DNA from: Marsupella aquatica
Taxonomy: Eukaryota > Plantae > Marchantiophyta
Direction: 5' to 3'
NCBI GenBank assembly: GCA_973895155.1
Contig: OZ316893.1
Span: 21,808,955 to 21,872,954 of the forward strand
Length of the DNA stretch: 64,000 nucleotides
The notes beneath the pieces were generated by a model. The model was not told where the DNA came from, made no database searches, and saw nothing but the letters and a program-made list of their open reading frames with translations. This document shows, piece after piece, positions 4,601-64,000 of this stretch (positions within the stretch are counted from its first letter, which is position 1; each line of letters begins with the position of its first letter). The position numbers were made by a program, and so were the translations under genes.

Positions 4601-5656
4601 TTACTTGGGAATGGTGAGGGTGTCTCCTGCCACGATGTAATCTGCATTCCAGATACCGTTTTCTGATTTCAACTCGTCAATGGATACTCCATATCTCCTC
4701 GAGATGCCCCAGAGAGTGTCACCACGAACGATGTAATACTCTTTGTAGGCTTTCTTCGGTTTACCTCCATGCGGTTTCCCTCCCGGTGCCAGCTTATGTA
4801 CCTTGTTTGCAACTGCAGCACCTGCCCTCTCCACTTTCCCTTCAGCCGAAGCCAGGCCTTTCTGGATTGCCTCCTTCTCCCTGATCAACTCCTCATCCGC
4901 TTTGTCAAAAAAGTTCTTCCCCTTCACCTCAGCAGATTTCTCACCATCCTCTACAGTTCTCTTCGTCTCCTCCTTTGCCTTCTCTGCCTTGGCTGCAGCC
5001 TCGTCCTTCTCCTTGTTGGCCTGTCCGCCGAGCCAACTAAACCAGCCGCCCCACTGCTGCTGGGTTTTACCCTCCTGCACGGCTGCTTTCTCCCTCCCCT
5101 CTTCCACAGCCTCTTTCACATCCTCCTCCGCTTCTTCAGCGGCGTATTTCGCCTCTCTTCTTTTCTCATCAGCAGCGTATTTCGCCTCTCTGCCTTTCTC
5201 CTCAGCGGCGTATTTCGCCTCTCTGCCTTTCTCTTCAGCGGCGTATTTCGCCTCTTTGCCTTTCTCTTCGACACCTCCCTTGAATTCTCCAGCTTTCTCC
5301 TTGGCAGCTCCAAACTTGTCCTTGACACCTCCCTTGAATTCTCCAACTTTCTCCTTGACACCTCCCTTGAATTCTCCAACACCTCCCTTGAATTCTCCAA
5401 CCTTCTCCTTGACCCCTGCCTCGAACCTGGAGAGTCCATCAGGCTTTCCAATATTGATCTGCTCATGGAAGGGCTCCCCTTTGGGATATCCGTGTGCGCG
5501 CTCCTCCTTCTTGCCCACAAAGACCGACTTGTACAAGCTGTACCCAATTCCCGTCGCTATAACGACAGCCGTGACTTTCACTATGGTGTCATCCTTCTTG
5601 TCATCCCCCTTCGGTGGACCTTTCGCTGCCGCCCCGTTCCCATGCGCTCCAGACAT
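4601..5656 (-). CDS. Intronless protein with an N-terminal hydrophobic anchor, LEA-like 11-mer repeats and a C-terminal LysM domain
   Basis: ATG at 5656 (MSGAHGNG). Hydrophobic stretch IVKVTAVVIATGIGYSLY, then 11-aa repeats GGVKEKVGEFK and AAEEKGREAKY, then LysM consensus YYIVRGDTLWGISRRYGVSIDELKSENGIWNADYIVAGDTLTIP. Confidence 0.88.
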   Translation of the reverse strand: MSGAHGNGAAAKGPPKGDDKKDDTIVKVTAVVIATGIGYSLYKSVFVGKKEERAHGYPKGEPFHEQINIGKPDGLSRFEAGVKEKVGEFKGGVGEFKGGVKEKVGEFKGGVKDKFGAAKEKAGEFKGGVEEKGKEAKYAAEEKGREAKYAAEEKGREAKYAADEKRREAKYAAEEAEEDVKEAVEEGREKAAVQEGKTQQQWGGWFSWLGGQANKEKDEAAAKAEKAKEETKRTVEDGEKSAEVKGKNFFDKADEELIREKEAIQKGLASAEGKVERAGAAVANKVHKLAPGGKPHGGKPKKAYKEYYIVRGDTLWGISRRYGVSIDELKSENGIWNADYIVAGDTLTIPK

Positions 5657-6009
5657 CTTCCTTCCCCTTCCTCTCCTCCTCCACCACACTCAACTCAACT
5701 CACCACCACTCACTCCACTGAGACGGCAGCAGATTCCAGCTCGGCGCGGCCAATTCTCTCGACCGATCGTGCGCACAAAGCGAGCAGAATGAAGAACTCG
5801 AAGCCTGGATCACAACCCACCACGGGGAATAAAAAGAACTCGAAAAACCTAAAATTGAATTCCAATCTCGATCAAGAAACTGTGCTCGACTCTATTTGGA
5901 ACAATTATGTTGGTAAAATATATTGGCGGAGTCTATATGTGTATGCAACTCAAATGTCAATATGCCCGGACGAACGAAGCAGTGCCACGGCGCAACGAGG
6001 GCACGACCA

Positions 6010-18400: not shown

Positions 18401-19800
18401 CGTTGGGAGGTCCTTCGGCCTCGACGCGCTGACACAACTGCAGGAAGTCCTGTCTTGGGTGCAGATTATTCATCTAACAATCTCAACCATCACTGCAATC
18501 AATGTTCTTATTTTCTGTTTGTACCTGAAACAGGTTAGTTTAGTCTCCATCCCGAGCAGGGAAGAGCTCAGGCAGAAAAATCTGTTCTCCGTTAGTGACT
18601 GCAAGATGTACTGGCAAAGTAATGGTGATTACCTTGCAGTCAAGGTCGATCGTTACACCAAAACCAAGAAGAGCACTTACACGGGTTTTGAGTTGTTCCG
18701 TATCAAAGAGAGGGATATCCCAATTGAAGTATTAGAACTTGAGAACAAGAATGACAAGATTATTGCTTTCTCTTGGGAGCCGAAGGGACACAGATTCGTG
18801 ATCATTCATGGGGACGGTCCACGACCCGACATCAGCTTTTACTCTATGAGAAGTCCTAATAATGTTGGGCGGGTGACTAAGCTAACTACCCTCAAGGGCA
18901 AGCAGGCCAATGCACTGTATTGGTCTCCTATTGGCAGATTCATTGTGCTAGCTGGACTCAAAGCGTACAATGGACAGCTTGAGTTTTACAATGTCGACGA
19001 GCTGGAGACCATGGCAACTGCTGAGCACTTCATGGCTACTGATGTTGATTGGGATCCCACTGGCAGGCAAGATACTTTCTGGTTTCAGGTGCCTTTGTAG
19101 CACAGTTGGAATGGAGATGCTTGTGTCGTCCTTCCCCTGTCGTTTTGCAAGATTTGGCTTACACTGGAAGTTCATTTTAGACTGACCTGAAGCTGTTGAT
19201 TTGCGCAGATTTGTTTCTACATCCGTGACCTCAGTGCACCAAATGGAAAATGGGTTCAACATTTGGTCATTCAATGGGAAGCTTCTGTACCGGCTACCAC
19301 GGGAGCGCTTTTTCCAGGTGACACTATGAGCCTACAATGCCGAGACTTCTGATTTCAAATACTGACTTTGTAAACATTGTATCGGATGTTCTGCTTGACC
19401 TTTTGGGATACCGAATACCTACACATGTACTGAGATGCTGTTTCTTTGGCAGTTTTTGTGGCGCCCGCGGCCGCCTTCACTGCTGAGCGCTGAGGAGGAC
19501 GCTGAGATTGCCAAGAACTTGAGAAAATACAGCAAGAAGTACGAGGTCGAAGATCAGGAAATGTCGAACTACCAAGGGGCACAGGACTTGGAAAATAGGC
19601 GGAAGTTGATGGATGAATGGAAGAGCTGGACAAACCAGTGGAAGAGCCTGCACGAGGAGGAGAAACCTTACCGTGAAGAGTTGAGGGACGGTGAGCCCAG
19701 CGACGAGGAGGAAGATTATGAGGCAGAAGAAGTAGAAGTAGAGGAGATTCTGAACATTGAGGAAGAGGTGATCTCCTATGGTTTTGAGCAGGTTGACTAA
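15464..19800 (+). CDS. TIF3B: Eukaryotic translation initiation factor 3 subunit B (PRT1 homologue), 10 exons
   Basis: Approximate exons 15464-15615, 15940-16324, 16500-16628, 16944-17072, 17408-17491, 17721-17845, 18053-18251, 18534-19066, 19209-19317 and 19453-19800. They splice into an RRM (VVDNLPVV..KGYAFIEY) and beta-propeller (WSPLGTYL, RQKNLFSVSDCKMYWQ, EHFMATDVDWDPTGR, WRPRPPSLL) typical of plant eIF3b. Confidence 0.97.
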
Positions 19801-22200: not shown

Positions 22201-23181
22201 TATTTCACTGCAGAGGCTAGAGAGAAAAAAAGGAGAGACTTCTACATAACATTAGAAAAAGCTATGACCACTTTCTCCCAAAATCATCAGCAACTCTGAA
22301 CCTTTGAGGCGGCCAATTGATGAAACATGCCCCTCCTCCACAATGCTTCAGCTTATGTGAAGGGCACTGAATTGCGTTTCACATTGCCAGCACAAAACAA
22401 AGCTAGCATCTTCTTAGGAGTTAGAATGGTGCACAATTTTACAAGTTCTCTAGATCGATTTCCAGAAACAGTGTGAAAAGAAATGAAGAAATTCACTTCC
22501 AGATAGTTGTAAATAGTTTCAAACGTCTGACGACGTTCACAGAATTGCAAATCCATTTTCGAATCCTTCCGCTGTCCTCCACATGTTTCAATCTTCAAAT
22601 GTCGCTGTGCTGGTGTAGATTGTGATCACCTTCTTAGCTTCCGGTGGAATCATTAGACCTCCTCACCGTAGAAATCAGCGAAATGTGGGGAGAAACTTCT
22701 CGGCTGACAACTTGCACAACACGATGTGGTGAAATTGTTGTGGAGATCACAACATCTGTATGATATTATTTGCCCAGAATGTTCGAAAGAACTACTAACG
22801 ACTAGTCTCACAATCAGTGGTCTTCTTGCTATTCCTGCAACTAACAAAATTTGGCTGTACAAATCCGAACCTTGTGATGGACGCTTTACCTACTAGTTTA
22901 ATCGAATCTCTGGTCGAGAACCATATCCAATTTTAGAGCAAATCCAACTTCGATAGGTCTAATCCAGGAGGCTAATTCGATCATTTTTTACACAGAACCA
23001 CTGACCAAATACTCATACAACTGTCGTTGGTAAGTCTGGAGCGTCGAGGTACTCCCGTGTGAAAAGCTCAGCTGATGGGAGGTCTCACAAAATACTGTTC
23101 ACTATATATGCATTAGCCCAACAATCCGGTTCAGCAAACTACCCATCTCGACCGAAGCTGCAAGACTACGGTAGCCTTCTT

Positions 23182-25941
23182 CTACTCCGCCTTGAGAGTG
23201 TTCGCAACGTCAATCACAAACCGGTAGTGTACGTCAGATTTCAAGAGCCGCACCATTGCCTCGTTGACATAGGTGATAGGAATCTTCTCTATGTCACAAG
23301 TCACATTATGCTTCCCACAGAAGTCCAGCATTTCTTGCGTTTCTGCAAGCCCTCCGATAAGACTACCGCCCAGGGTTCTTCGTGCTGCAGAATTAAAGCG
23401 ACTCGTTAAATTGAAGTTGCTTTTCTCTCAACAAGTGCTAACAAAATACTCGGAAATAACAAAAGTGGACTGCGCTGGTCGAGATTCGAGATGTTACCAG
23501 CTATCAGCGACATCGGTGAGATTGACATGTTGTGAGGTGGCACTCCAACAAGTACGAGCTTGCCGTCAACTTTGAGCAGCTTGAGATAGTCTTCTACACT
23601 GTGAGGAGCTGATACTGTATCGATAATGAAATCCAGCGTTAGAGCTGCTGCCTGCATATGCATTTAGGATATATGACGGATTAGTGAAGTTCAGGTAAGT
23701 AATGAGCCATCACAAAAACAAAAGCATTCGGTTCTGTTTTCATAATCCAGAAGTCATGAGAAATGTGTCCAGAACGCTGTAATCGGACTGTCGACTTCAT
23801 CGAAAAATAAGGAGTTCATGGCTGTACGAACCCAGTTAACAGCTACAAAAACAACAACAGTAGAAGAACGTTAGACAGTTTTGTCTGTAACCTTCATCTG
23901 GGCTTCGTCTTTACTGACGATGAAGTTGTCAGCAAGAAGATGCGCACGGGCCTCTTTCTCTTTCTTCGGTGAAGTACTGATAACTGTCACGGTCATGCCG
24001 AAACCCTTAGCAATCTTGGCAGCCATGTGTCCAAGCCCACCCAGTCCGACGACTCCGAAGTTCTTGCCTCCGTGTTCCATGTCGTAATGCTTCATGGGAC
24101 TGTAGACAGTGATTCCGGCACACAATAGCGGTGCGGCCGCATCCATCGGCAAATTCTCAGGCATCTTGAGCGCAAAGCTACAATAATTCAATCCCAGACA
24201 ATTAAGAAGCAAATGTCAATAGGTGATGAGCCACAGATTGTAGGTCGTAATTTATTCAGACATTATTTCGCACTACCTTCACCATGATCCGGCTCCTAAT
24301 TCGAGTTTCGCATGCTATTTGCGAGCGATTCTCAAATGCAATCGTTTAAGGATGGGTATTTCACATAGGAGAACCATAACAACGGTGTCAGGAAACTGTA
24401 AAAGAAGGCAATAATTGCCTTTTCTACTATAGGAGCCATGTCATACGGACAAACTGATCACCACATTTACGTACTGTTCTTTGACGATCATGACATTCGA
24501 GTAGCCGCCGTAAGTAGGATGGCCGTCAAATCCCATAGAGGAGTAGGTCCAGATCATCTTTGGGCAGTAATTTTCCAAGCCGTTGTCACAGGTTTCACAG
24601 TCCCCACAAGAGTCCACCAAGCAACCAACTCCAACACGGTCCCCGGGTTTGAATTTCGTGACCTCTGATCCAACCTTTGTGACAATTCCCACAATCTCGT
24701 GCCTGCGTGCAAAACATCATCATGAACACAGAAGGTGGGCACAAGCGAATGTAGACCAGAGCGGCCATTGGAACAAGGAATCCGAATCCAATAATTATGC
24801 TGTGTTCTCTGTTCTCTAGCCAAGTCATAAGAAAAACTCCCATTCTGCACGCTCTTCATAAGAAATGGGATCCGGTGAGGACAACGAGACTGTCGGTGAA
24901 ATAACAGGGAATTCTTACCCAGGAACCATGGGATACTCCGAGCCGCCCCATTCGTTCTTGATTTGATGGAGATCCGTGTGGCAAATTCCACAGTACTTAA
25001 CATCGAAAGCAACATCCTGCGGGCCGGGCTCTCTGCGTATAGCGGAAGAAGGACAACAACAAATTAGCCAACGGAAAACAGCAGGGAAGCACAAATTGGG
25101 GCAGGTACAACTTTACAGTGGCCCCTGCTCAACAAACCAACAAGTCTGACGTATCTCTTGAAAATAATGATCACCCTGACTCATCCAGAATATGACAACC
25201 AGCCACCCACTGTGCATTCTCCAACCTATCCAGGACAACCGTGTCTAGTCTAATCCAAACTCAAAGCTCAGCGCATGTACTCAATGCATTATGCAATTCT
25301 ACTCCTCGAGTACACATAGATCCGAACAAAGGCCCCCTAATACACGGGTAGTCAGTCCGTGAGGTCGAGGTTCACAGAACCCGACCGACCTCACAGAATG
25401 TCCACACAGTTCTTAACAAAGGAATTGGAAAGAGACTCTGCAGCAATTGATTGAAGTACTGAACACCATTATGCATTTGTACTCCTCGGTACCCATAGAT
25501 CTGAAACAGGCCCCCTAACACACGGCTACACAGCGAGGTCGAGGTTCACAGAACGCGACCGACCTCACAGGAAGTCCACACAGTTCTTAAGAAAGAATTG
25601 GAAACGTCGTAGTGACGAGACTCTGCAGCAATTGATTGTAGTACTCAACAGCATTATACAGTTATACTCCTCGCGCGGTACACATAGATCTGAAACAGGC
25701 CCCCTAACACACGGCTAGACAGAGAGGTCGAGGTTCACAGAACCCGATTGACCTCACAGAATGTCTACACACTCCGTAAGAAAAGGAATGGAAAGGTCTC
25801 AAGAGACTCTGCAACAATTCAAGGAAGCATATACCTTCTCTTGAAGGAAAATGGGCTCAATTGTCCAGAGCTGTCGCGGGCTGCCCATCCACAGGCCGGG
25901 ACCTTCAGCTCGGTCGTCGTCGTAGTAGTAGTTCCCACCAT
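23182..25941 (-). CDS. CAD: Cinnamyl alcohol dehydrogenase-like zinc-dependent medium-chain dehydrogenase, 6 exons
   Basis: Exon 1 (25835-25941) reads [20 protein letters not shown]. Later exons give [65 protein letters not shown] and [10 protein letters not shown], with stop at 23182-23184. Exon junctions are GT-AG. Confidence 0.95.
25280..25820. repeat. Three tandem copies of a unit of about 185 bp inside CAD intron 1
   Basis: ggccccctaa..acacgg...gaggtcgaggttcacagaac..gacctcacag...gagactctgca recurs three times. Confidence 0.85.
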
Positions 25942-32383: not shown

Positions 32384-35300
32384 CTATTTGAGGTTATAGC
32401 CCAGAAACTGTACCGACTTTGTACCAAGGGCAAAATCACTTCTATACCCAATTTGTCCTACGCGTCCAGGTTGGACTCGGAGTGCGCGCTCAGCATCTGC
32501 CCGGGCTCCATCCTCGTCCGACAACAAGAACTTGACAAGGCCACGGTGTTTAAGGCATTCATAGTCATCTGCTTCTAGGCTGAAGGATTCGTCCAAATCT
32601 GCAAGTGCCCCTTTCAGGTCTCCTTGCATTTGTTTCGCAACGCCCCTTTCCTGCAAGCCGTGTCCTCTGTTCCCTCCTAATTCAATGAACTTACTCACGT
32701 CTGCAATCGCCCCATCAAAATCTCCTCGCTTCGCTTTCACACAACACCTGAGCCTGTAAATCAAAGACACGGAGTCGATTTTCATCAGAAAAGAATCTAT
32801 TCGCAAAGGAACCTCCTAATGATTTTGTGAGGGAAGAGATTTGAGGGTTCTATAACGACTATCCTTCTCTCTTCACAGTCTACATTACATATGTTGCTTC
32901 ACAAAACTTCAGGAAACTTCCATCACAACTTGCACACAACAGAGAGCTATGCATCTGCTCTATAACTTCAAAACCACCGTCAATGATTCGCGAAAGATAT
33001 TTTACTGTAAAAGATGACGACTTTCTGGAACGATGGGTAGCCGGCTGTCTTCATACAACTCAAGTGCATCCTCATAGTCGCGACGGTCTACTTGGAACGT
33101 CAATACTCGTAATGCATTTGCTGCCCACTTTTGCACTTCCCCGCTTTGATCCTTGGCCAAGAGTGCTACAAGGCTCCCAATGGCATTTGGGAGCTCGGCT
33201 ATCTTGATCCTGTTTTCCCCATCTTTAGCCAAATTCCCTAATGCAAAAGCTGCCCCCACTTGTACATCCTCGCTTCGATCCTCGGCTAGGAGCGCTACAA
33301 GTCGTGCAAAGGCATTTCGGGATTTGGCTATATTGATGCTGTTTTCCACATCTACAGCCAAATTCCCTAGTGCAAAAGCTGCCCTCCCTTGTACATCCTT
33401 GCTTCGATCCTCGCCCAAGAGTGCTACAAGGCTCCCAATGGCGTCTGGGAAATCAGACATCTTGATATTGTTTTCCGCATCATGAGCGAAATTGCCAAAT
33501 GGAAAACCTGCCCCCCGTAGTACATCCTCAGCTAAGAGCGCTGCAACCTTTGCAATTGCATGTGGGAATTCGGCTAACTTGATCATGACTTCCTCATCTT
33601 GAGCCAATTTCCCTAATGCAATAGCTGCCCCTTGTTGTACACGCTTGCATCGATCCTCGGCTAAGAGCACTACAAGTCTTGCAATGGCTTTTGGGAAGTC
33701 GGCTATCTTGATCCTGTTTTTCGCATCATGAGCCAAATTGCCTATTGCAGCAGCTGCCCTCCGTTGTACATGCATTCGATCCGCTGCCAAGAGTGCTACA
33801 AGGCTCCCAATGGCATTTGGGTGTGTGGCTATCTTGATCGTGTTTTCTGCATCACCAGCCAAATTCTGTAATGCAAAAACTGCCCACTGTTGTACATCCT
33901 CGCTTCGATCCTCGCCCAAGAGTGCTACAAGGCTCCCAATGGCATTTGGGAGTTTGCCTATCTTGACCCTGTTTTCCGAATCTATAGCCAACTGCCCTAA
34001 TGCAAAAGCTGCCACCTGTTGTACATACTTACTTTCATTGTGGGCCAAGAGTGCTACAAGGCTACCAACGGCATTTGGGAGTTCGGATATCTTGATCCTG
34101 ACTTCTGCATCTTGAGCCAATTTCCCTAATGCAAAAGCTGCCCCTTGTTGTACATCCTCGCTTCGATCCTCGCCCAAGAGTGCTACAAGGCTCCCAATGG
34201 CATTTGGGAGTTTGGCTATCTTCATGCTGTTTTCTGCATCATCAGCCAAATTCCCTAATGCAGCAGCTGCCCACGCCTGTACCTCCGTGCTTGCATCGTC
34301 GGCCAGGAGCACCGCAAGTCTGTCCAGGGCATGTGGAATTGTTGGAAATTGGAGCTGATGACCAGAATGGTTAGCAAAAGCAAAGAAAGTAACAATGGCA
34401 CTCGAAAATCAACGTGAGGTGGACTGTTGTTTGTAGCCTCTAGGAGATCTACTAGAGCAGACAATATTCTGGGAATGGTGGGTATACGTCGATTAAAGAT
34501 CACGAATTTTTGAAGGGCTTCCAATGTATGCAAAACTGTCTCCTTTGTACTTAATAATATTGACACGCTGTAGTCATCAAGCTCATGGCAGAATATGTAC
34601 TTTCGGAGAATCTGCAAGGTGAAAAAGACGAACAGCCATCATTACGCAAAACAAAAAACCTGGAAAGTTAACGCAATGGAAAAAATCTTTGAGGAGCCAA
34701 GGACCATTGACATAAGCTAATTGAGAAAGTGTACTTGGTACAATAAAAAGAGAGAATGCTTGACAAATGCTAGCCAAGGACACCTGCAGACTATACTACT
34801 TTAGTTACCTGTTTAGCCAATCCATGTGATTTGTTCTTCCATTTGTCCCTGGTATCTGCATGGAGGAGCCTGACAAAGCATTTGATTCGAGCTAGGTGCA
34901 ACCCCCTTTCTTCGGAAGAGTCATTCACAATCTGGGACAATGGGATCCCTAATGACTTTGTTGCTCGGTCATGCCATTGGGCAAGTTCTTGGTCATGCCA
35001 CTGGTCTTGCCCATAAAGAAGTAGCAATTCAATAAAAATGTCCTCCTCTGTGTTGCTTTCCAAGAACTTATCACGCATTGATTTCATGTCACTGCTCTTA
35101 ATCATCCCAATTATACTTCACCGCATAGCATGTAATGACCAGGTCTTGGTGGCAGGGAGAGTACTCCATGAAGCATTATTACTATTGATTTCAATGAAGT
35201 TGTTGGATTGCAAGTGCATGGAGCACTGTGGAAACTGGGCCAAAGTACCATGTTCCTTCTTGAAAAAGAGTTTGACTACCACTTCAGGAACAGGTTGGCT

Positions 35301-36610
35301 ATCACCAACCAACAGAAGAGTTTCAGCAGGCTTTGGAAGAGAAACCAAAGCCATTTCCATACAAGTAAGTATGGTTTTTGGGTATGGGTCATTAAATAAA
35401 ACAACACGGGAATTGTCGCTAACTTGGATGAGGTCTTCAAAATACTCTATGATGTGTTTCCATATGTCCAATTCATCAAACCCTTTGCCCTGAATACTTG
35501 CACATACATTTGTTGCCATGTTGGCAAGCACTAAAGGGAGGTGATCTGCCTTCTTAACAATTGCATCAATTGCCTCCTGCCACACACATGCGCACAGAGG
35601 TCAACTGCATGCATTGAGATTGCCTCCATTTCAGATTGTCAGTCACAAGATTCATTTAAGTCAAAGTGATACTCAAGCAAAAGGTGTTCATTGCAATATT
35701 CTACTCCACAAGGAAAAATTTCAAAATTGTGAGCAAGGATTTTACCTGCAATGGCCCCTGCGTGATGGCTATGGGTTCCCTATATACATGGTTTAAGAGA
35801 ATTTGGGATGCCTCTTCCGAAGTCGGAGGGTCCAACGTGATCTCCACACATATAGCATCGTTCCACAGTTGTGGTATCTGGGTAGTGACTAGATATTTTA
35901 GCCCCTCCCCCGGAAACAAAAGCCTCTTTATGAGCTTGTGTTCACATACATCATCCAGTATAATCAAAATCTCTTGATTCAAAAGCCTTCTTCTTAGCTC
36001 GGAGAGGTAATACTCAGTCATATCAAAGCCGTCTTGCATCGCTGGCAGAAGCAGCTGGTAGCCCAAACTTTTCCATAGTTTGAATAAGAGTTTAGGGAGG
36101 TCCTTGCTATCCATGTTTGGACCACATGGCAAGAAGACTACCCCGTCTTTGAATCTGCTAGTAGCCAAATCCTGGGGAGAAAGATTTTGATGTGGAACAA
36201 ATTCTGGTAATTCACTTTGAATGGAGGCCCTCTGGTAATACCAAGCCAAATATCTTGCCATGCTTGTTTTCCCTTGTCCCGGTCCTCCACGGAGTGTGAC
36301 TACAGGGCCTGTGGTTTTGCTCTCCAGAGCTTTCTGAACTTGAAGCATGGTTGCCTTGAGCACCACATACTTGGGATCTTGAGGGAATGGTGACGTCAAT
36401 CGTGTTACTAGACTGGTAGAGGAGCTATCAGCACCTTCCTGAATTTTTAAGCACAAAGAATATCAGCTACATTTTAAGTTCCAACATTAGCTCATACTTC
36501 ATGCAAAATAATACCCGAAATCAATGTTAAGCTATATTGACGATATTGGTAAGAATCACATTCTCGACAACGTAACAGGTACTAGGTGAGGCAATGGAAA
36601 ACATTCTTTG
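32384..36610 (-). pseudogene. NLR-like copy A: NB-ARC - about 10 ARM repeats - TPR, with the hydrolase exons deleted
   Basis: P-loop GGPGQGKTS, kinase-2 ILIILDDV, RNBS-B KYLVTTQ and GLPL-like HLPLVL; ARM exon 33002-34312; TPR exon 32384-about 32753. Lesions: in-frame TGA at 35118-35120, a 1-nt frameshift near 34375-34380, and a deletion of about 1.7 kb relative to copy B at about 36570. Confidence 0.88.
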
Positions 36611-43986: not shown

Positions 43987-46900
43987 CTATTTGAGGTTAT
44001 AGCCCAGAAACTGTACCGACTTTGTTCCAAGGGAAAGACCTCTTCCATACCAAATTTCTTCTACGTGTCCAGGTCTGACTCGGAGTGCGCGCTCAGCATC
44101 TGCCCGAGCTCCATCCTCGTCCGACAAAAAGAACCTGACAAGGCCACGGTGTTTAAGGCATTCATAATCATCTGCTTCTAGGCTTAAGATTTCGTCCAAA
44201 TCTGCCAGTGCCCCTATCAGGTCTCCTTGCATCCGTCTCGCAACGCCCCTGTCCTGCAAGCCGAGACCTCTGTGCCCTCCTAATTCAATGAAAAGATTGA
44301 TATCCGCAATCGCCCCATCAAAATCTCTTCGCTTTGCTTTCACAGAAAACTGAACCTGTAAATCAAAGACACCGAGTCGATTTTCATCAGAAAAGAATCT
44401 ATTCGCAAGGGAACATCCTAATGATTTTGTGAGGGAAGAGATTTCAGGGTACTATAACGACTATCCTTCTCTCTTCACAGTCTACATTACACATGTTGGT
44501 TCACAAAACTTCAGGAAACTTCCATCACACCTTGCACACAACAGAGAGCTACCTATCTGCCCTACGGCTCACGTTAAAGCCATGATCAATGATTCATAAA
44601 TCAATTAGTGTGTGGTACATCTCCCAAGTGGTAAGATATTTTACCACAAAATCAGACGAAATTTTGGATTGATGGCTATCAGACTGTCTTCGTACACCTC
44701 AAGTGCCCCCTCATAGTCGCCAAGGTCTACTTCAAACGTGAAAACTCGTAACGCTACTGCTGCCATCTGTCGTACACCCTCGCTTCCATCCTTGGCCGAG
44801 AGTGCTACAAGGCTCCCAATGGCATTCGGGAATTGGGCTATCCTCATCCTGTTTTCTGAATCTTTACCCAACTCCCCTAATGCAACAGCTGCCCCTCCTT
44901 GTACATCCTCGCTTTGACCCTCGACTAAAAGCACTAGAAGTCTTGCGATGGCATTTGGGGAGTAGGCTATCTTCATCCTGTTTTGTCCATCTTGAGCCAA
45001 ACTCCCTAATGCAACTGCTGCCCATTTCTGTACATCCTCGTTTCGACCCTCGCCCAAGAGTGCTACAAGGCTCCCAATGGCATTTGGGAATTGGGCTATC
45101 TTCATCCTGTTTTCTGAATCTTCACCCAAATTCCTTAATGCAAAAGCTGCCCCTCCTTGTACATCCTCGCTTTCATCCTTGGCTAAAAGCACTACAAGTC
45201 TTGCAATGGCATTTGGGGAGTCGGCTATCTTGATCCTGTTTTCCGCATCTTGAGCCAAATTCCCTAATGCAAAAGCTGCCCCCGCTTGTGCATTGCCGCT
45301 TTGATCCTCGGCTAGGAGCGCTACAAGTCTTGCAATGGCATTTGGGGAGTCGGCTATCTTGATCCTGTTTTCCGCATCTTGAGCCAAATTCCCTAATGCA
45401 TCAGCTGCCCCCGCTTGTGCATCGCCGCTTTGATCCTCGGCTAGGAGCGCTACCAGTCTTGCAATGGCATTTGGGGACTCGGCTATCTTGATCCTGTTTT
45501 CCGCATCTTGAGCCAAAGTCTTTAATGCAATAGTTGCACACTGTTGTACAGTCTCGCTTCGATCCTCGGCTAGGAGCGCTACAAGTCTTGCAATGGCATT
45601 TGGGGACTCGGCTATCTTGATCCTGTTTTCTGCATCTTGAGCCAAAGTCCCTAATGCAATAATTGCAAACTTTTGTAAAGCCTCGCTTCGATCCTCGGCT
45701 AGGAGCGCTACAAGTCTTGCAATGGCATTTGGGGACTCGGCTATCTTGATCCTGTTTTCCGCATCTTGAGCCAAAGTCCCTAATGCATCAGCTGCCCACT
45801 GTTGTACATCCTCGCTTCGATCCTTGGCTAGGAGCGCTACAAGTCTTGCAATGACATTTGGGGACTCGGCTATCTTGATCCTGTTTTCCGCATCTTGAGC
45901 CAAAGTCTTTAATGCAATAGTTGCACACTGTTGTACAGTCTCGCTTCGATCCTCGGCTAGGAGCGCTACAAGTCTTGCAATGGCATTTGGGGACTCGGCT
46001 ATCTTGATCCTGTTTTCTGCATCTTGAGCCAAAGTCCCTAATGCAATAATTGCAAACTTTTGTAAAGCCTCGCTTCGATCCTCGGCTAGGAGCGCTACAA
46101 GTCTTGCAATGGCATTTGGGGACTCGGCTATCTTGATCCTGTTTTCCGCATCTTGAGCCAAAGTCCCTAATGCATCAGCTGCCCACTGTTGTACATCCTC
46201 GCTTCGATCCTTGGCTAGGAGCGCTACAAGTCTTGCAATGACATTTGGGGACTCGGCTATCTTGATCTTGTTTTCCGCATCTTGAGCCAAAGTCTTTAAT
46301 GCAATAGTTGCACACTGTTGTACAGTCTCGCTTCGATCCTCGGCTAGGAGCGCTACAAGTCTTGCAATGGCATTTGGGGACTCGGCTATCTTGATCCTGT
46401 TTTCTGCATCTTGAGCCAAAGTCCCTAATGCAATAATTGCAAACTTTTGTAAAGCCTCGCTTCGATCCTCGGCTAGGAGCGCTACAAGTCTTGCAATGGC
46501 ATTTGGGGACTCGGCTATCTTGATCCTGTTTTCCGCATCTTGAGCCAAAGTCCCTAATGCATCAGCTGCCCACTGTTGTACATCCTCGCTTCGATCCTTG
46601 GCTAGGAGCGCTACAAGTCTTGCAATGACATTTGGGGACTCGGCTATCTTGATCCTGTTTTCCGCATCTTGAGCCAAAGTCTTTAATGCAATAGTTGCAC
46701 ACTGTTGTACAGTCTCGCTTCGATCCTCGGCTAGGAGCGCTACAAGTCTTGCAATGGCATTTGGGGACTCGGCTATCTTGATCCTGTTTTCTGCATCTTG
46801 AGCCAAAGTCCCTAATGCAATAATTGCAAACTTTTGTAAAGCCTCGCTTCGATCCTCGGCTAGGAGCGCTACAAGTCTTGCAATGGCATTTGGGGACTCG

Positions 46901-49900
46901 GCTATCTTGATCCTGTTTTCCGCATCTTGAGCCAAAGTCCCTAATGCATCAGCTGCCCACTGTTGTACATCCTCGCTTCGATCCTTGGCTAGGAGCGCTA
47001 CAAGTCTTGCAATGACATTTGGGGACTCGGCTATCTTGATCCTGTTTTCCGCATCTTGAGCCAAAGTCTTTAATGCAATAGTTGCACACTGTTGTACAGT
47101 CTCGCTTCGATCCTTGGCTAGGAGCGCTACAAGTCTTGCAATGACATTTGGGGACTCGGCTATCTTGATCCTATTTTCCGCATCTTGAGCCAAAGTCCCT
47201 AATGCAATAGTTGCAAACTTTTGTAAAGCCTCGCTTCGATCCTCGGCTAGGAGCGCTACAAGTCTTGCAATGGCATTTGGGGACTCGGCTATCTTGATCC
47301 TGTTTTCCGCATCTTGAGCCAAAGTCCCTAATGCATCAGCTGCCCACTGTTGTACATCCTCGCTTCGATCCTCGGCTAGGAGCGCTACAAGTCTTGCAAT
47401 GGCATTTGGGGAGTCGGCTATCTTGATCCTGTTTTCTGCATTCAAAGCCAAGTAAACTAATGCAAAAGCTGCCCCCCGTTGTATATCCTTGCTTCGATCC
47501 TCTGCTAAGAGCGCTACTAGTCTTGCAATGACATTTGGGGATTCGGCTATCTTGATCCTGTTTTCTGCATCTGCAGCCAAAGTCCCCAATGCAACAGCTG
47601 CCCAGTGTTGTACATGCTCCCTTCCATCCTCGGCATGTGGGAATTTAGCTATCTTCATCCTGTTTTGTGGCTTTGCAGCCAAATCCTCAAATGTCAGAGC
47701 TTCCTTGGGTGTTACAGATTGGGTGACATCGGCCAGGAGCGCCACAAGTCTGTCCAGGGCATGTGGAATTGATGTAAATTGGAGCTGATTACCAGGATGG
47801 TTTTGGAACAGGCGATAAAGTAAAAATGACACTAGGATATGAATGTGAGCTGGAGTGTTGTTCGTAGTCTCTAGGAGAACTACTAGAGCAGACAATATTC
47901 TGGGAATGGTGGGTAGAGCTGCATTTGAGGTCACAAACTTTACAAGGGCTTCCAATGTATGGAAAACTGTCTCTTTTGTACTTAATAATATCGAAATGCT
48001 GTTGTCATCAAGCTCATGGCAGAGTATGTACTTTCTGAGAATCTGCAAGGACAACAAGACGTACCGTGGTAATTAGGCAAAACAAAAAACCGGAAAATGA
48101 AATGGAAAAAATCTTGAGAAGCTCAACTTTTTAGTCATCATGTATATTAATAAGAATTGACATAAGCTGGTTGCGAGAGTATTTGGTAGAATAAAAAGAG
48201 ATAATGCTCGACAAATGCTAGTGAAATACACTTGCAGACTATTGTACTTACTTGTTTAGCCAATTGATGCGATTTGTTCTTCCAGTCTTCCCTGGTATCT
48301 GCATGGAGGAGCCAGACAAAGGATTTGATGGGAGCTAGTTGCAACCTCCTTTGTTCGGAAGAGTTGTTCACAATCCGAGACAATGGGATCCCTAATGACT
48401 TTTCTGCTTCGTCACGCCATAGGGCAAGTTCTTGCTCATGCCACTGGTCTTGCCCATAAAGAAGTAGCAATTCAACAAAAATATCCTCCTCTGTGTTGCT
48501 TTCCAAAAACTTGTCTCGGATTGATTTTATTTCACTTGTCTTGATTCTCCCAATAATAGTTTGACGCATAGCATGTACTGACCAGGTCTTGGTGGCAGGG
48601 ACAGTATGCCATGAAGCATTATTACTATCAATTTGGACAAAGTTGTTGGAATGCAAGTGCTGGGAGCACTGTGGAAACTGGGCCAAAGTACCGTGTTGTT
48701 TCTTGAAAAAGAGTTTGATCATCACTTCAGGAACAGGAACTAATTGGCTGTCAAACATTGAGGCCACCAACAGAAGAGTTTCGGCAGACTTTGTGAAAGA
48801 ACGCAAGGCCTTTTCCATACAAGTAATTATGGTTTTTGGATATGAATGATTAAATAAAACAACACGGGAATTGTCGCTATCTTGGATAAGGTCTTCAAAA
48901 TAGTCTATGATGTGTTTCCATGCGTCCAATTCAACAACCCCTTTGCCTCGATTACTTGCACGTACAATTGTTGCCATGTTGGCAAGCACCAAAGGGAGGT
49001 GATCTGCCTTCTCAACAATTGCATCAATTGCCTCCTGCCACACACATGCTCACACAGGTCAACTGCATGCATTCTGATTGCCTGCATTTCAGATTGTCAG
49101 TTACAAGATTCATTTATGTCAAAGCGATACTCAAGCAAAAGGTGTTCATTGCAATATTCTACTCCACAAGGCAAAATTTTGAACTTATGACCACAGATGT
49201 TACCTGCAATGGACGCTGCGTGATCACTATGGGTTCCCCATATACATGGTTTAAGAGAATTTGGGATGCCTCTTCTGAAGTTGGAGGGTCCAACGTGATC
49301 TCCACACATATAGCATCGTTCCACAGTTGTGGTATCTGGGTGGTGACTAGATATTTTAGCCCTCCCCCGGAAACAAAAGCCTCTCTATGAGCTTGTGTTC
49401 ACATACATCATCCAGTATAATCAAAATCTTTTGATTCAAAAGCCTTCTTCTTAGCTCGGAGAGGTAATTCTCAGTCATATCAAAGCCTTCTTGCATAACA
49501 TTGCTGGAACTTGCCTGGCCACGTAGAACTTCCATCGCTGGGGGAAGCTGGTAGCCCAAACTTTTCCATAGTTTGAATAAGAGTTTAAGGAGGTCCTTGC
49601 TATCCATGTTTGGACCACATGGCAAGAAGACTACCCCGTCTTTGAATCTGCTAGTAGCCAAATCCTGGGGAGAAAGATTTTGATGTGGAACAAATTCTGG
49701 TGATTCAGTTTGAGTGGAGGCCCTCTGGTAATACCAAGCCAAATATCTTGCCATGCTTGTTTTCCCTTGTCCCGGTCCTCCACGGAGCGTGACTACAGGG
49801 CCTGTGGTTTTGCTCTCCAGAGCTTTCTGAACTTGAATCATGGTTGCCTTGAGCACCACATACTTGGGATCTTGAGGGAATGGCGACGTCAATCGTGTTA

Positions 49901-51798
49901 CCTGACTGGTAGAGGCGTTCTCATGAACCACCTGAAATTTGAATGACAACGAGTATCAGCGACATTTTAAGTCCCAACACAGGCCCATACTTGAGCACAT
50001 AATACATGAATAAGCTATATTGACGATATTGGTAAGAATCAAGGCATTGCTTCAATATAAAGGGTCCAATCGCTCCACCTTCAAGCCATTGGCAATTGAG
50101 TCACGGATGAAGTCCCGAAGTGTGGAGAAGCTTCTTGAGATGTTGCTGCTTGGTCTACAGATGGAAAAGTGATCTGCTCCTTCCACAACATTGAAATTCG
50201 CACCAACCCTTGCAGACGCCTCTGGGACAACAACACCCACAAAAGATCCCTGCCCAACGCGGAGTGTGTACAGTCATTCAAATCATGAGGATGTATCAAT
50301 CTGGACCCTTTCAGGTAAAGTCTTTAGTAGAGTAAATCGACTTCTTAATACAGTTTGATACAAAATGTGTCAACAATGGAATCTACTATATCTAGAAACT
50401 AGACAGAACATCAATCAGAAATCCTGGTTTCTGAAACAGGATTCAGGAACAAGGAATAGGAAATCGCTTAAATTCATGAATTTTCCTGAACAGAAATTCA
50501 CAGAAATTCTGGATCATATAAATACAGCACCGAAACAAAGATATCATTGAATTCCCAACTCAAGAGCTGAAACCAACTAGATTGCAGAACAAACTTGAAT
50601 ACAATAGCATGGGTTTGTTTAATTGCCCTGTTGGAATCTAGTTGTTACAGTTCATATGTGAACTCTAACCAATGCGAAGTCAATGGACTCACAGCTCGAA
50701 TTTCTTCCAGATATCCAGATATGAGTTACAGCCCAGGCCTACAGAACATTACATGACATGTGCAACTTTGTAGCTTGATTCAAATGGCTTCATACCAAGT
50801 TAGTAGCGAGATTTTCACCAAGTCCCGCGAATAACCAGTTGCGATGTACTTTGGATACTTGGTCGAATCTAAAATTCAGCCTTTCTGTGTCCGTGCTGAG
50901 CATTTTGAAGTATGTCAAAAGAGAACTTCCAAAGTGATCTTTCAATATGTCTGCAATGGGGCATCCATGATGCGGCGTTGAATAATAAAATATCCCCTTG
51001 ATGCTGTTTAGCAATACCCGTAACTTGGCCGCCTTAGACTCTGAGCTCCTGTGGAGCAGATCATGTGCTTGGCTACACAACTCTTTGATAACCAATCCGC
51101 CAATCGAGTGACCAACCAGTACAACAGGACAAGAAGACCCAATATTCTCCTGCAAAAGATCAGAAAGCAGGTTTTCCCCGATGATATGCATGTCCACGCT
51201 TTCATTTGATCCCTTTGTCAAACCTTCAGTGTAACACACGGATAACACATGAGCCTGGGGAAACTCTTCAACCAACCACGTTTGTGGCCAATAAGAACCA
51301 TCACGGTTTTGCCAAGTGGAAACATGTGCGTTGGAATAATCTTGTCCAAATTGGAGGCCGTGAAAAAACAAGATCTGTACATCACGAGTGCCTCGAGGTT
51401 TGTGGAACAAGTACAATGAGTCGTTTACCTGACACAACCAAACACCAAGAAAAAGAGACACAGCCACCATTATAATTCCACTTTGTCATATGCTAGATGC
51501 GAGCAAGCCCGATAAAGTCTTGGCGTATGAGTCACCAACTATCAAAGGAATCACGAATTTTGTGATCAATCTACATCAGAATCTGTTCCAAATAGTTTGC
51601 CAGATCTGTGGTGCCAAATCCGCCTAAATGCCAATATAGAAGGGGTTGAGATTAGAATTACAGTACTCGAGGAAGATGTGTAAGGATTTCGGAAATTCCA
51701 GGAGCTCGGGGAGAGCTGGGAGAGGAGGCTCCACAACAGGCGAGGCAATCGACAACATTGTTCAAAACGTAACAAGTACGTGAGGCAATGGAAAACAT
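43987..51798 (-). CDS. NLR-like copy B: alpha/beta-hydrolase - NB-ARC - about 23 ARM repeats - TPR (two 1-nt frameshifts as assembled)
   Basis: Inferred exons 51798-51667, 51428-50796, 50249-50079, 49931-49204, 49034-48252, 48042-44645 and 44355-43987, all GT-AG. Hydrolase motifs FFHGL, GHSIGG, STPHHG, DHFSICRP; NB-ARC motifs GGPGQGKTS, ILIILDDV, HLPLVL; 43-aa ARM repeats; TPR-like GAIADINL..GVARRMQGDLIGALADLD..HRGLVRFFL..GARADAERAL. Frameshifts at about 49360 and 44350 relative to copy A. Confidence 0.85.
45430..47365 (-). repeat. Coding higher-order tandem repeat: 5 x 387 bp, each made of three 129-bp ARM units
   Basis: Marker aaagtctttaatgcaatag recurs at about 45515, 45902, 46289, 46676 and 47063 (387-bp spacing). 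The protein cycles QQWAAD / QKFA(T/I)I / QQCATI. Confidence 0.95.
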
Positions 51799-52308
51799 TT
51801 CTTTGTCCCAAGGTAGTCGAAAATCGTGGTTGGGGTCAATGACTGTCACTCTGCAAAAACAACGGAAGGAAACAGTTATGGAACCATGCAATATCGCAAC
51901 CACAGGGTTTCGATCAGTAAGCGCAACTGTTCAAAATTAGAATCCAAATCCTTGCTGCAAATTAACCAATATAATTAATCCATGCTCACTGAGAACAAGG
52001 CAAAGATCTAGTATGATATCTCTTAGACCAAAAGACAATCAAAGTTCTCACGAGAAAAGTCTTAACCTTTTCAATCTTAGAGAAGTTTTTGAACCAGAAT
52101 TTAAGATGACGAGCAGGCAAACAGCGAAGAGGACTCTAGGCACCCTGCGCAGCAGCATGGCAGCATGTAATAAGACTACGGAGGTGATGGGCAAGGGTGA
52201 TTGAAGGACCTCAGCTGCATCCGCTGAGGACATGGTCGACGTCAAGGAGACTACAGAGGTGATGGGCAAGGCGGGGGCAAGGGTGGAGGAAGTATCTCTG
52301 CTGAAGTC

Positions 52309-57966: not shown

Positions 57967-58149
57967 CTATTTGAGGTTATAGCCCAGAAACTCTACCGAC
58001 TTTGTTCCAAGGACAAAATCATTTCCATACCCATTTTTGTCTACATATCCAGGTTTGACTCGGAGTGCGCACTCAGCATCTGCCCGGGCTCCATCCTCGT
58101 CCGACAACAAGAACCTGACAGGGCCACGGTGTTTAAGGCATTCATAGTC
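57967..58149 (-). pseudogene. NLR-like copy C: only the last TPR codons remain
   Basis: DYECLKHRGPVRFLLSDEDGARADAECALRV..FLGYNLK is joined at about 58149 directly to sequence that lies upstream of the RBX1 relic in unit B (tacggaggtgatgggcaagg, about 52177). Confidence 0.85.
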
Positions 58150-58281
58150 TACGGAGGTGATGGGCAAGGGTGATTGAAGCACCTCAGCTGCATCCGCTGA
58201 GGACATGGTCGACGTCAAGGAGATTACAGAGGTGATGGGCAAGGCGGGGGTAAGGGCGGAGGAAGCATCTCTGCTGAAGAC

Positions 58282-61486: not shown

Positions 61487-63121
61487 TCAAAAACTTTGCT
61501 TCAGCATCTGTCGATCTACCTTCTCTACTTTAGGCTTGACACCATTTTCTCGATACATCCTGGGCCACTCTATGAATCCTTTAGTGCCCATGGCAATGTG
61601 AGGATTTCCCCTGTCTGGGGAGCGCCAGTCACGAGATGGACTGGCAATTCCTTGCTCTGTCACCAACCTCACATGGGCACCTCGGGACAAGTCTGACGTC
61701 CCCCTTGCATGGAAGCTTCTACATCCCTCCCCTGATGATCTCCGTCCCTGTTCTTCAGTCAAAGCCTTCCCAGCTCCAGCTGAAGGAGTGTAGGCTCTCC
61801 ACAAGTCATCTCCTGCCGAGAACTCTGAAGCTGGTTTGACGGTAACGGCCTGGGGGAAAGAGTTCCTGTCATAAGCTCTAGAATGCACGGCTGCATCTGC
61901 TGCTGGGGGTTCATTCTGATACTCACCTCCTACTCTATCACTTTGCGAGGACTTATTAGAGTTGCCTGGCTCCATGGCCTCAAGGATGTCTTGATCAGAG
62001 GCACTTTCCCACTGGCTGCCATCTTCTTCTTTGGGATCATCGCCTAGATGCTCACTTTGTGAATTCCATTCGCTTGCATTCCCTCTGTCATCCTCCAATT
62101 GCCTGGAACCATCACCTTCACGGCCCCCTTTCATGGAGGACTGTTGACCATCTTGCTCCCACTTTCTCCTCAGCCTTTCCAGAACCTCATCTTTTGTTGC
62201 TAACCTAGGTTCAGATTCTCCATAACCTCTGGTGGCTTGGGCACCCCAGCTCCAGCCTTCTCTCCTATCAGGTTGAGGGAACCTAGAATTGTTTGACCTC
62301 TGCTCACCTCTACGAAGACCCGAAGCATCTTCATCTGTATTAGCGGACCTGTAAGTGTCAGGTAGCACCACGTCTCTTATTTGCAAAGCATCTATGGCAG
62401 CCTTCAGGCTTTCAGCTTCCTGCACAACTTGTTTGCAGCTTTCCTCGTCATCCTCAGCATCGCGAAAAAAGGCCTTGCTAGATTTGAGAAATGCCTCGAC
62501 CTCGACCCTAAGATTTACTAGAATCATGGTCTTTTCTTCAATATCTAACCTCGCTTCCGCAAGCTTCATCTGGACCCTTTCCTCTCGCCATACCTCCGCC
62601 ATCTGCAACATCTTCCTTTCCTCTTCTACTTCCTCTCTAACCTTAGCAGCTTCGCGCTTTAGTTCCTCAACCTCCTGCTTGTCCTCTCCTATCTCCCTTG
62701 CGAGCTCATTACATACATCTTCCATGAGCTCCCGTGTTTTTTTCTCCTTCTCCAATTCCTGAATAGCTTTAGCAATGGTAATGTTTGCATCCACCAACTC
62801 TCGAGAGATCTTCCTATTTACAGACTCTACTCTCCATCTTGCCTTCTTCTCCTCCTCGGCTTCCACCTTCACTGCTTGCACAGCAGACCTGATCTTCTCT
62901 TGCTCCCTATTTCGCAAAGAAAGTTTCTCCTCGGTCAGTTTCTTCAAAAGATTGTAGATCTCTCTTCGAGCTTTTTTGTGTGCAAGCTCCAGCTCGTGTG
63001 CTCGAGCCCTGACACGTTCCAATTCTATGCGGAGGTCAGCCACCACAGATGACTGTGCTGCGTGATGTTCTTGGATATCTCGGATCTGATTCAAAGAAGC
63101 CAACTCCACATTCAGAGACAA
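61487..63121 (-). CDS. Plant coiled-coil protein of the BRANCHLESS TRICHOME / At1g50660-like family (large last exon; 5' exons upstream unresolved)
   Basis: Family motifs LMEDVCNELAREIGED, ERKMLQMAEVWREERVQMKLAEA and NPHIAMGTKGFIEWPR. A probable upstream donor lies at about 63177 (SYM|gtatgt). Confidence 0.8.
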   Translation of the reverse strand: MSLNVELASLNQIRDIQEHHAAQSSVVADLRIELERVRARAHELELAHKKARREIYNLLKKLTEEKLSLRNREQEKIRSAVQAVKVEAEEEKKARWRVESVNRKISRELVDANITIAKAIQELEKEKKTRELMEDVCNELAREIGEDKQEVEELKREAAKVREEVEEERKMLQMAEVWREERVQMKLAEARLDIEEKTMILVNLRVEVEAFLKSSKAFFRDAEDDEESCKQVVQEAESLKAAIDALQIRDVVLPDTYRSANTDEDASGLRRGEQRSNNSRFPQPDRREGWSWGAQATRGYGESEPRLATKDEVLERLRRKWEQDGQQSSMKGGREGDGSRQLEDDRGNASEWNSQSEHLGDDPKEEDGSQWESASDQDILEAMEPGNSNKSSQSDRVGGEYQNEPPAADAAVHSRAYDRNSFPQAVTVKPASEFSAGDDLWRAYTPSAGAGKALTEEQGRRSSGEGCRSFHARGTSDLSRGAHVRLVTEQGIASPSRDWRSPDRGNPHIAMGTKGFIEWPRMYRENGVKPKVEKVDRQMLKQSF

Positions 63122-64000
63122 TTTTCTAAAACTTGGAACTCAAAAAACCTCTTGACATTGGAGGAAGGAAATACATACCATGTAAGACCCAGGTTTGGGT
63201 TGTCCCAGCTGAGTGATCCTTGAATCGGCTCTTTCCTTGAAAAGTCTATGTACATGAGACCGCAATGCTGCATTCTGCCTATTGCTTGTAGATTGGGATT
63301 CAGAGCTCTTCTTCACACTCTCCCAGGCCTGCCAAGACACAGTTCTGCCAGGTCAGCGTGGGTAAGACAACATACAGGGATTGATGGTAGCGTGGAAGTC
63401 AGCAGCTGGTGTGTATTAAAAGGGTACAAATGTCTGACATCTCCCGTCGGTGGAATTAAGGCAGTAAGAACTTGAGAGCGAAGAGAGGCTAAAGTCGATT
63501 AGTTCAGTCGCGCAAGAAACGATTCCAGGAACCCAACATTGCTAGCAACCAAGAAAACAGGATAGAGCAACTGAATAATCCCGAAGGGAGTGTAAGTCCA
63601 TTGTAACAGACAAGACACATGTTGAATGTTGAGCTCTGAGTATGCAAAAAGTTAAGTCTTCCGGCACATGAACCGATCACCTTAAGTTAGAAACCAAAGT
63701 CCACGACGAAGACACGGTAAACAACGTGCACACGGCGGCACTAGATGAATAAAAGACAGGAAGGTTGTTATCCAGGTGGGTTAACAAGAGGGAAGGCTTA
63801 GAGAAATTCAGCTCAATCAAGGGCCAACAGATCATACGAAGAATCATAACAGGAGGAATACCGAATTACAGGAGGCAGTTTCTGTCAACTAATAGTTCTA
63901 TTTGAGGGTCAGAGGCGAAGAGTCGAGATTGTTAGATGCGAAAGCCAGAGAGAGCCAATCAGTTAAACCCAGAGAGATGGGACATAGAAATGTTGACTGA

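Follow-up and report, generated by a model that had tools for sequence, protein, structure and literature searches.

The minus-strand locus at positions 43987-51798 of a 64,000-nucleotide (nt) window from Marsupella aquatica (hereafter, the target; the window is the whole stretch of DNA that was analysed, and all positions refer to it) is probably a predicted liverwort receptor gene, likely pseudogenised, in which a hydrolase of the hydrolase-NB-LRR (HNL) type likely took over the position of the four-helix head on a protein of NHAT type (NB-ARC-ARM-TPR). Our guess is that "NHAT" stands for "NBS-HEAT-ARM-TPR". The first-pass annotation of this locus had proposed that ARM repeats took the place of leucine-rich repeats (LRRs). 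Our analysis overturned that order of events: since the NB-ARC domain lies in an ARM clade and not in HNL, while the hydrolase is HNL-type, the hydrolase appears to have been added to an ARM body in place of a helical head, and not the ARM repeats in place of LRRs.

Gene structure and domain organization

Seven exons were predicted for the target, all on the minus strand and with GT-AG at every border. Exon 1 (51798-51667) is a tentative leader of 44 amino acids (aa), which starts at an ATG at 51798 and runs as an open frame to a phase-0 GT donor; the matches of relatives start at residue 16-28, and the ATG and first codons are conserved in a tandem paralog in the same window. Exons 2 (51428-50796) and 3 (50249-50079) encode the N- and C-terminal parts of an alpha/beta-hydrolase, the former with the motifs GHSIGG (Ser152) and STPHHG, the latter with Glu265 and DHFSICRP, whose DHF includes His282. 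The Pfam families matched by exon 2 (Abhydrolase_6, PGAP1 and DUF676) all stayed under their cut-offs, and its hydrolase is at most 56% identical to hydrolase-NB-LRR proteins of Calypogeia fissa. After a phase-0 intron between hydrolase and NB, exon 4 (49931-49204; 728 nt, including a 1-base deletion) encodes the NB subdomain, with a Pfam NB-ARC match, a P-loop (GGPGQGKT), kinase-2 (IILDD) and RNBS-B (YLVTTQ). Exon 5 (49034-48252) encodes the ARC1/winged-helix part, with HLPL and, at the likely MHD position, VHA, followed by a helical linker. Exon 6 (48042-44645) encodes a helical linker, 22 regular 43-aa ARM repeats and the first TPR helices, and ends at a donor (TG/GTAAAA) common to the target and the paralog. 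The TPR tail lies in exon 7 (44355-43987); it is off frame after the homologous splice, and shares 43% identity with the corresponding part of Mapoly0095s0062. Exons 1 and 3 have weak donors, which are tentative.

Two Pfam families exceeded their cut-offs (NB-ARC, 24.9 bits against 23.5; Arm, 141.5 against 20.6), and two that did not (Abhydrolase_6, 21.9 against 26.3; TPR_2, 26.3 against 27) are supported by homologues. The Pfam scan detected no LRR family in exons 6-7 and no TIR match in the target, and the LRR motif count was 0. The first-pass annotation was thus accurate on the parts of the protein: its hydrolase and NB-ARC motifs were all found (the GLPL-like one as HLPL), its approximately 23 ARM repeats were recovered as 23 motif matches, 22 of them regularly spaced at 43 aa, and its TPR tail and absence of LRRs held. 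As to its seven joined exons, the borders and domains stood, while the single open frame did not, two 1-base deletions having been overlooked. The exon borders are also backed independently: among 71 short library hits, 25 stop at intron 4 and 28 cover exon 5, which is the pattern expected of unspliced gene calls.

Relatives of the target and placement of its NB-ARC domain

A search with the hydrolase exon returned 78 longer proteins, of which 68 were from liverworts (Calypogeia fissa, Marchantia, Riccia), two were close and eight were weak (27-34% identity); the majority were hydrolase-NB-LRR proteins. The NB exon, in contrast, matched 4 of the 79 stored proteins, none of them an LRR-type HNL, and exon 5 had a single match, P0079 of C. 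fissa (55%). A profile of the NB-ARC and linker collected 74 representatives at E <=1e-30, and all 25 family members that were looked up by name were liverwort proteins. The highest identities to the target were 55-62%, in keeping with a liverwort source but too low to point to a genus. P0018 (C. fissa, 1488 aa) aligns end to end with the target and has an intact hydrolase, NB-ARC, ARM array and TPR tail; the architecture described by the first-pass annotation therefore exists intact in at least one annotated bryophyte protein.

Hydrolase heads were present in 11 of 34 hand-picked longer family rows, target included, and the gene models of three C. fissa and seven Riccia proteins contain the hydrolase-NB fusion. 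The other family rows typically have a head of approximately 140-180 aa. Four long helices were predicted in that of P0117, whose fold search ranked NRC4, NRC3, NRC2 and Sr35 at the top, yet with a root-mean-square deviation of >20 A, too large to assign this head to a fold class. In 19 of the 25 short hits that stop at intron 4, at least 110 aa of head share the open frame with the NB part; helix-headed genes thus seem to have no intron between head and NB.

A quick tree was built from 96 NB-ARC rows (3 of 30 HNL picks were dropped as short matches) and a careful mixture tree from 48 rows chosen among these. The two were concordant. In the mixture tree, 20 liverwort ARM-family rows, including the target, made up one side of a branch (100/98). 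Five RLS1-like rows (from the fern Ceratopteris, the lycophyte Selaginella and the angiosperm Paulownia) joined this family at 99/98 and formed a clade of their own (100/99), adjoining the target's but excluding the target. Twelve HNL rows were placed elsewhere (98/86), with TIR-type rows, and the approximately unbiased (AU) test rejected a tree in which HNL also included the target, its paralog and P0079 (p=1.6e-6). The first-pass annotation had called for an NB-ARC phylogeny; it was run against HNL and RLS1-like rows, and gave the liverwort ARM clade and not HNL.

Heads of both types alternate on this tree. Hydrolase-headed and helix-headed members were sisters in P0018/P0091 (100/100), in P0050/P0090 (100/100), and in the target with P0079 against P0080 (99/97), and head type requires five state changes. 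A single clade of hydrolase-headed members was rejected on both the NB tree (p=1.8e-89) and the hydrolase tree (p=1.8e-63). As the outside group and the majority of members have helical heads, repeated gain of a hydrolase is the simpler reading, and from the distribution of heads we infer gain rather than loss.

Further observations concern the modularity of these proteins. Four C. fissa hydrolase-NB-LRR proteins (P0013, P0055, P0062, P0066) end in an ARM-family TPR tail (35-47% identity); judged by these alignments, the TPR tail is a second exchangeable cassette. P0002 (Riccia sorocarpa) and P0175 each contain two NB-ARC domains, the first of HNL type; the second one of P0175 groups within the ARM-family clade. 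Both proteins are possibly fused gene models of paired receptors.

The hydrolase and its mobility

The candidate catalytic triad of the target consists of Ser152, Glu265 (conserved in 48 of 57 rows) and His282 (49/57), making it a candidate Ser-Glu-His serine hydrolase. Among relatives, the nucleophile is Ser in P0018 as in the target, Cys in P0079 and P0050, and Asp in three Riccia members; the Cys and Asp forms cluster in the tree. A model of P0010, used as a stand-in, had an alpha/beta-hydrolase fold, and the fold-search matches, at 11-17% identity, did not indicate a substrate. When a profile of the hydrolase-bearing proteins was compared with PDB sequences, good matches were to the NB-ARC parts only.

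In the hydrolase tree, where fungal and bacterial hydrolases make up the outgroup, the target lies in a clade of 21 rows (Shimodaira-Hasegawa-like approximate likelihood ratio test, SH-aLRT, 100), 19 of which are not on an ARM body. The target and P0079 are 59% identical in the NB part and 37% in their hydrolases, which differ in nucleophile (Ser vs Cys) and belong to different lineages (AU p=1.3e-57). The predicted introns 2 and 3 are both of phase 0, one within the hydrolase and one between hydrolase and NB. HNL genes are marked by two phase-0 introns, one interrupting the hydrolase and the other separating it from the NBS (PMC3352924). In its sequence, and in the phase of these two predicted introns, the target hydrolase matches the HNL-type cassette.

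The liverwort hydrolase was also found outside NLR-type proteins, fused to a U-box (PF04564), a caspase-like domain (PF00656, with tandem hydrolases), a B-lectin (PF01453) or PF13517; these fusions were found among P0010, P0012, P0017, P0021, P0024, P0027, P0056 and P0069. On the evidence of such gene models, the liverwort hydrolase is a cassette that is mobile beyond NLRs.

Frame breaks and the state of the target

Two frame breaks interrupt the target. The first (49356..49362, minus strand) is a 1-base deletion near 49360 in exon 4, where the target has GGG and the paralog GGGG. A TAA follows four codons on, at 49356-49358, and limits the product to 503 aa; thus the message of this haplotype would end at 503 aa, with the NB-ARC incomplete. 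The second is a 1-base deletion, relative to the paralog, near 44350, a few bases into exon 7. From the donor shared with the paralog (44644, phase 2) a stop was reached in the target with all four acceptors tried, whereas the paralog reads through. Fifteen alternative phase-0 splice models for exons 6 and 7 stay open, scoring 131.9-145.9 bits against the family tail profile compared with 147.9 for the homologous junction. They sacrifice some or the whole of a TPR helix pair conserved in the family, and leave the first break unmended.

A search of public sequencing runs listed five with this sequence, none of them of RNA, a result without bearing on expression. Contigs of four public runs (X1-X4) were aligned to positions 47700-52000, a span that includes the first break. 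In X1, the target's contigs were exact, at a depth of 17-21; the extra base occurred in one contig only, at a depth of 9.6 of 48.6, and the paralog's own contigs had depths of 8.9-9.9 (9-9.8 for those carrying its deletion junctions). Were the base present, the target and the paralog would share 43 identical letters around the first break, and the base would be expected at their summed depth. Since it was seen at paralog depth, the first break is likely real in the X1 sample, and X1 may be the window's own source. In X2, the depth of the extra base (54.1 of 439.2) is ambiguous between the copies.

The first frame is retained in organism B (run X3, record 18), which has a close counterpart of the target. 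The 431-nt contig of this counterpart, at a depth of 151, is 98% identical, with seven other letters and one gap; it has the extra base and not the paralog's deletion, with only 17 letters on one side of the base, which is below the bridging bar. Loose contig ends in X3 and X4 are consistent with the extra base. X3 as a whole contains a divergent counterpart at a depth of approximately 150 plus window-identical contigs at approximately 27, as in a mixed sample or polyploid subgenomes. Calculated for each exon over few sites, dN/dS of the target against the paralog spanned 0.17-0.92. The target copy is probably a pseudogene.

The ARM array

At the DNA level, the array consists of 22.3 copies of a 129-nt unit, organized in a three-repeat super-unit of 387 nt. 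Repeats 3, 6, 9, 12 and 15 share one DNA sequence, repeats 5, 8 and 14 another, and repeats 7, 10, 13 and 16 a third. Such identity suggests either a very recent expansion or an uncertain copy number in the assembly. The length of the array seems to vary through recent tandem duplication, a behaviour that a sensor surface would be expected to show.

Weighing the explanations

Several points count against a hydrolase-for-helix replacement on an ARM body and its extension to the family. The relatives are automatic gene models, and the target's hydrolase/NB splice is itself a prediction. The clear four-part architecture was seen in one of ten hydrolase-headed database members (P0018): the annotation of P0079 has no TPR tail, in P0050 a single, weak ARM match was recorded, and none of the seven hydrolase-headed Riccia members matched the ARM profile. 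The trees were midpoint-rooted and contain no TIR-NB-TPR (TNP) rows, and the groups behind the AU values of 1.8e-89, 1.8e-63 and 1.3e-57 were chosen post hoc from the trees, under LG+G4. The RNBS-B of the target is without the usual Arg, and VHA occupies the likely MHD position, the family as a whole likewise lacking this Arg and a clear MHD Asp; the switch may therefore work unlike that of canonical NLRs. Of the 57 hydrolases, 38 have Ser, 12 have Cys and seven have Asp in the nucleophile column, so that catalysis may be dispensable. Finally, the second frame break was read from the assembly.

The nucleophile counts bear most directly on an alternative that shares the proposed origin and differs in function: the hydrolase would be non-catalytic, serving as a scaffold that binds lipid or as an integrated decoy for those pathogen proteins by which HNL hydrolases are attacked, and a partner would signal. 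Besides the 19 of 57 rows with Cys or Asp, which include P0079, P0050 and the three Riccia members, repeated gain from different hydrolase lineages resembles the behaviour of integrated domains, and U-box, caspase-like and lectin families also occur fused to this same hydrolase. Nevertheless, the target and P0018 retain the Ser, the conserved Glu and the His, the hydrolase substitutes for the helical head and is not appended to it, and isolated HNL hydrolase domains gave hypersensitive response (HR)-like death (PMC11218826). We regard this alternative as unlikely, although it keeps appreciable weight. An intact gene, with both breaks being assembly errors in short G runs, is improbable. Both breaks do consist of the loss of a single G within a G run, the hydrolase, exon 5 and the ARM exon are free of internal stops, and the 98% identical counterpart in organism B carries the extra base, with 17 letters on one side. 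Against it, both neighbouring copies are broken as well, and in X1, possibly the window's source, the extra base is at paralog depth (9.6) while target contigs are at 17-21; X2 is ambiguous.

Two further alternatives concern what was joined to what. A stand-alone hydrolase gene (with a stop at 50052 if intron 3 is retained) might lie upstream of an NB-ARM gene that has no head: exon 3 has a weak donor (AAG/GTGGAG), read-through meets a stop nine codons later, and the paralog is without hydrolase exons. This is very unlikely, given that exons 3 and 4 are just 147 nt apart with a phase-0 acceptor, that the identical fusion recurs in the C. fissa and Riccia gene models, and that the paralog's hydrolase exons were removed by an internal deletion with the ATG kept. 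Scarcely any probability, and a shade less still, attaches to the target being an HNL whose LRRs gave way to ARM repeats, thereby forming one new class. Its hydrolase and introns are HNL-type, and the C. fissa HNLs P0055 and P0066 end in a similar TPR tail (45-47% identity); yet the NB-ARC was rejected from HNL, the NB-exon query met no LRR-type HNL, and hydrolase-headed members are not monophyletic in either tree. On present sampling, that origin is refuted by the AU test and the 48-row tree. Replacement of the helical head by an HNL-type hydrolase thus remains the probable explanation.

Proposed origin, mechanism and significance

The replacement could have come about by exon shuffling at the phase-0 intron before the NB exon, approximately five times in the family (Calypogeia, Riccia). 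In NLRs, the repeat domain acts as brake and sensor, the NB-ARC as switch, and the head as executioner after oligomerisation. In an intact member, the ARM/TPR solenoid would accordingly hold the NB-ARC switch off and bind a microbial or modified host protein. Ligand binding would lead to nucleotide exchange and oligomerisation, which would cluster the Ser-Glu/Asp-His hydrolases. The clustered hydrolases might then cleave a lipid-like ester and cause cell death, a role equal to that of the four-helix head in sister genes.

A broader and more tentative proposal, which in our estimate falls a little short of being probable, is that liverworts possess a plug-in immune system: an ARM/TPR body would have swapped its four-helix head for HNL hydrolases, or the reverse, at least five times and from different lineages (Ser, Cys, Asp), with the ARM array growing by three-repeat units. 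If this is true, hydrolase-headed members would be undescribed enzyme-gated ARM receptors, and sister pairs with differing heads would directly test plant NLR hydrolases: P0018/P0091, P0050/P0090 and P0079/P0080 each combine one body with different heads, a natural head-swap experiment. Exon shuffling would have carried executioner domains repeatedly, and inside a single genus, from one NB-ARC class to a distant one, and a non-LRR sensor would be as expandable and diversifiable as LRRs. Being broken, the window copy would make a poor reagent; P0018 or the organism B counterpart would be better suited.

Tandem copies and the rest of the window

The tandem paralog (32384-36604, minus strand), approximately 90% identical to the target, is a pseudogene. 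Its hydrolase exons were lost through an internal deletion that spared the ATG, and it has a TGA at 35118-35120, a 1-base deletion near 34385 and approximately nine ARM repeats. A third copy (57967-58197, minus strand), detected by tblastn and self-blastn, consists of the end of the TPR exon alone, fused to the upstream flank. The locus is a decaying three-copy cluster. These copies lie in three tandem segmental copies within 30700-61100 (about 30.7-42, 42-54.5 and 54.5-61 kb), which are 76-92% identical and differ in the decay of the receptor gene. Each is bordered by a 3'-end fragment of the eIF3b-like gene at 15917-19800 (Pfam RRM and eIF2A).

Elsewhere in the window, 4601-5689 (minus strand) encodes a single-frame protein of 362 aa, in which units of 33 and 21 nt give tandem repeats of 11 and 7 aa, with a C-terminal LysM; our impression from its composition is that it is LEA-like. 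Exons of a zinc-binding alcohol dehydrogenase, presumably cinnamyl-alcohol-dehydrogenase-like, are at 23005-24215 (minus strand). A retrotransposon integrase (rve) remnant with stops occupies 229-1638 (plus strand), and a 550-aa open frame at 61487-63139 (minus strand), rich in charge and likely coiled-coil, had no Pfam match.

Comparison with known systems

Fungal and bacterial NLRs that join a hydrolase to NACHT or NB and repeats, such as the "SesB-like" type, resemble the target in having an enzyme head, a nucleotide switch and a non-LRR solenoid. They account for 8 of the 78 hydrolase-search hits, at 27-34% identity and E >1e-5, and neither the hydrolase tree nor the search gave a sign of recent transfer.

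The CC-NB-ARM proteins of the rice RLS1 family (PMC10030324; PMC12512272) share with the target an NB-ARC with ARM in the place of the LRR, and RLS1-like rows are the nearest outside group. The label "RLS1-like" was given by length and architecture (PMC10030324), RLS1 itself being absent from the tree. Unlike the target, RLS1-like proteins are conserved at approximately 1040 aa, with few weak ARM matches and neither a TPR tail nor a hydrolase. Activated RLS1 leads to cell death and resistance (PMC10030324); the available parts of PMC12512272, PMC8559963 and PMC9825502 mention NB-ARM proteins only in general.

With HNL, or Hyd-NLR, proteins the target shares an alpha/beta-hydrolase at the N-terminus (at most 56% identical to HNL heads of C. 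fissa) and both phase-0 introns (PMC3352924; PMC11218826); it differs in having no LRR and an NB-ARC outside the HNL clade. Two Marchantia HNL hydrolase domains caused HR-like cell death and ion leakage, and the same study groups non-LRR proteins as "others" (PMC11218826). The biochemistry of the hydrolase heads of plant NLRs is described as an open question (PMC10952240).

The closest named body is that of the bryophyte class NHAT, of which Mapoly0095s0062 is an example gene, and one of five whose overexpression in Nicotiana benthamiana is shown giving cell-death symptoms (PMC12513842). This gene (MARPO_0095s0062, MpNBS-LRR15; P0238) has ARM and TPR and no hydrolase, and was represented in the tree by P0096, its representative at 90% clustering; the NHAT traits used here were read off this type example. 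The NB-ARC of the target lies within the 20-row clade that holds P0096, and the order of NB-ARC, linker, ARM array and TPR tail is the same and free of LRRs, with identities by region of 32%, 23%, 33% and 43%. In contrast to the helical non-enzyme N-terminus of Mapoly0095s0062, the target has a hydrolase head, which does not match P0238; it also has 22 near-identical ARM repeats and a broken frame. The first-pass annotation knew of no described family of this kind. For the hydrolase-headed form this stood, as our literature search, whose coverage excluded subscription papers and two supplements that may list such proteins (those of PMC12513842 and PMC11218826), met with no protein described as joining hydrolase, NB-ARC and ARM; for the ARM/TPR body it did not, as this falls in the clade of the named NHAT class. 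Thus both halves of the target are known, and their combination and its repeated origin appear to be new.

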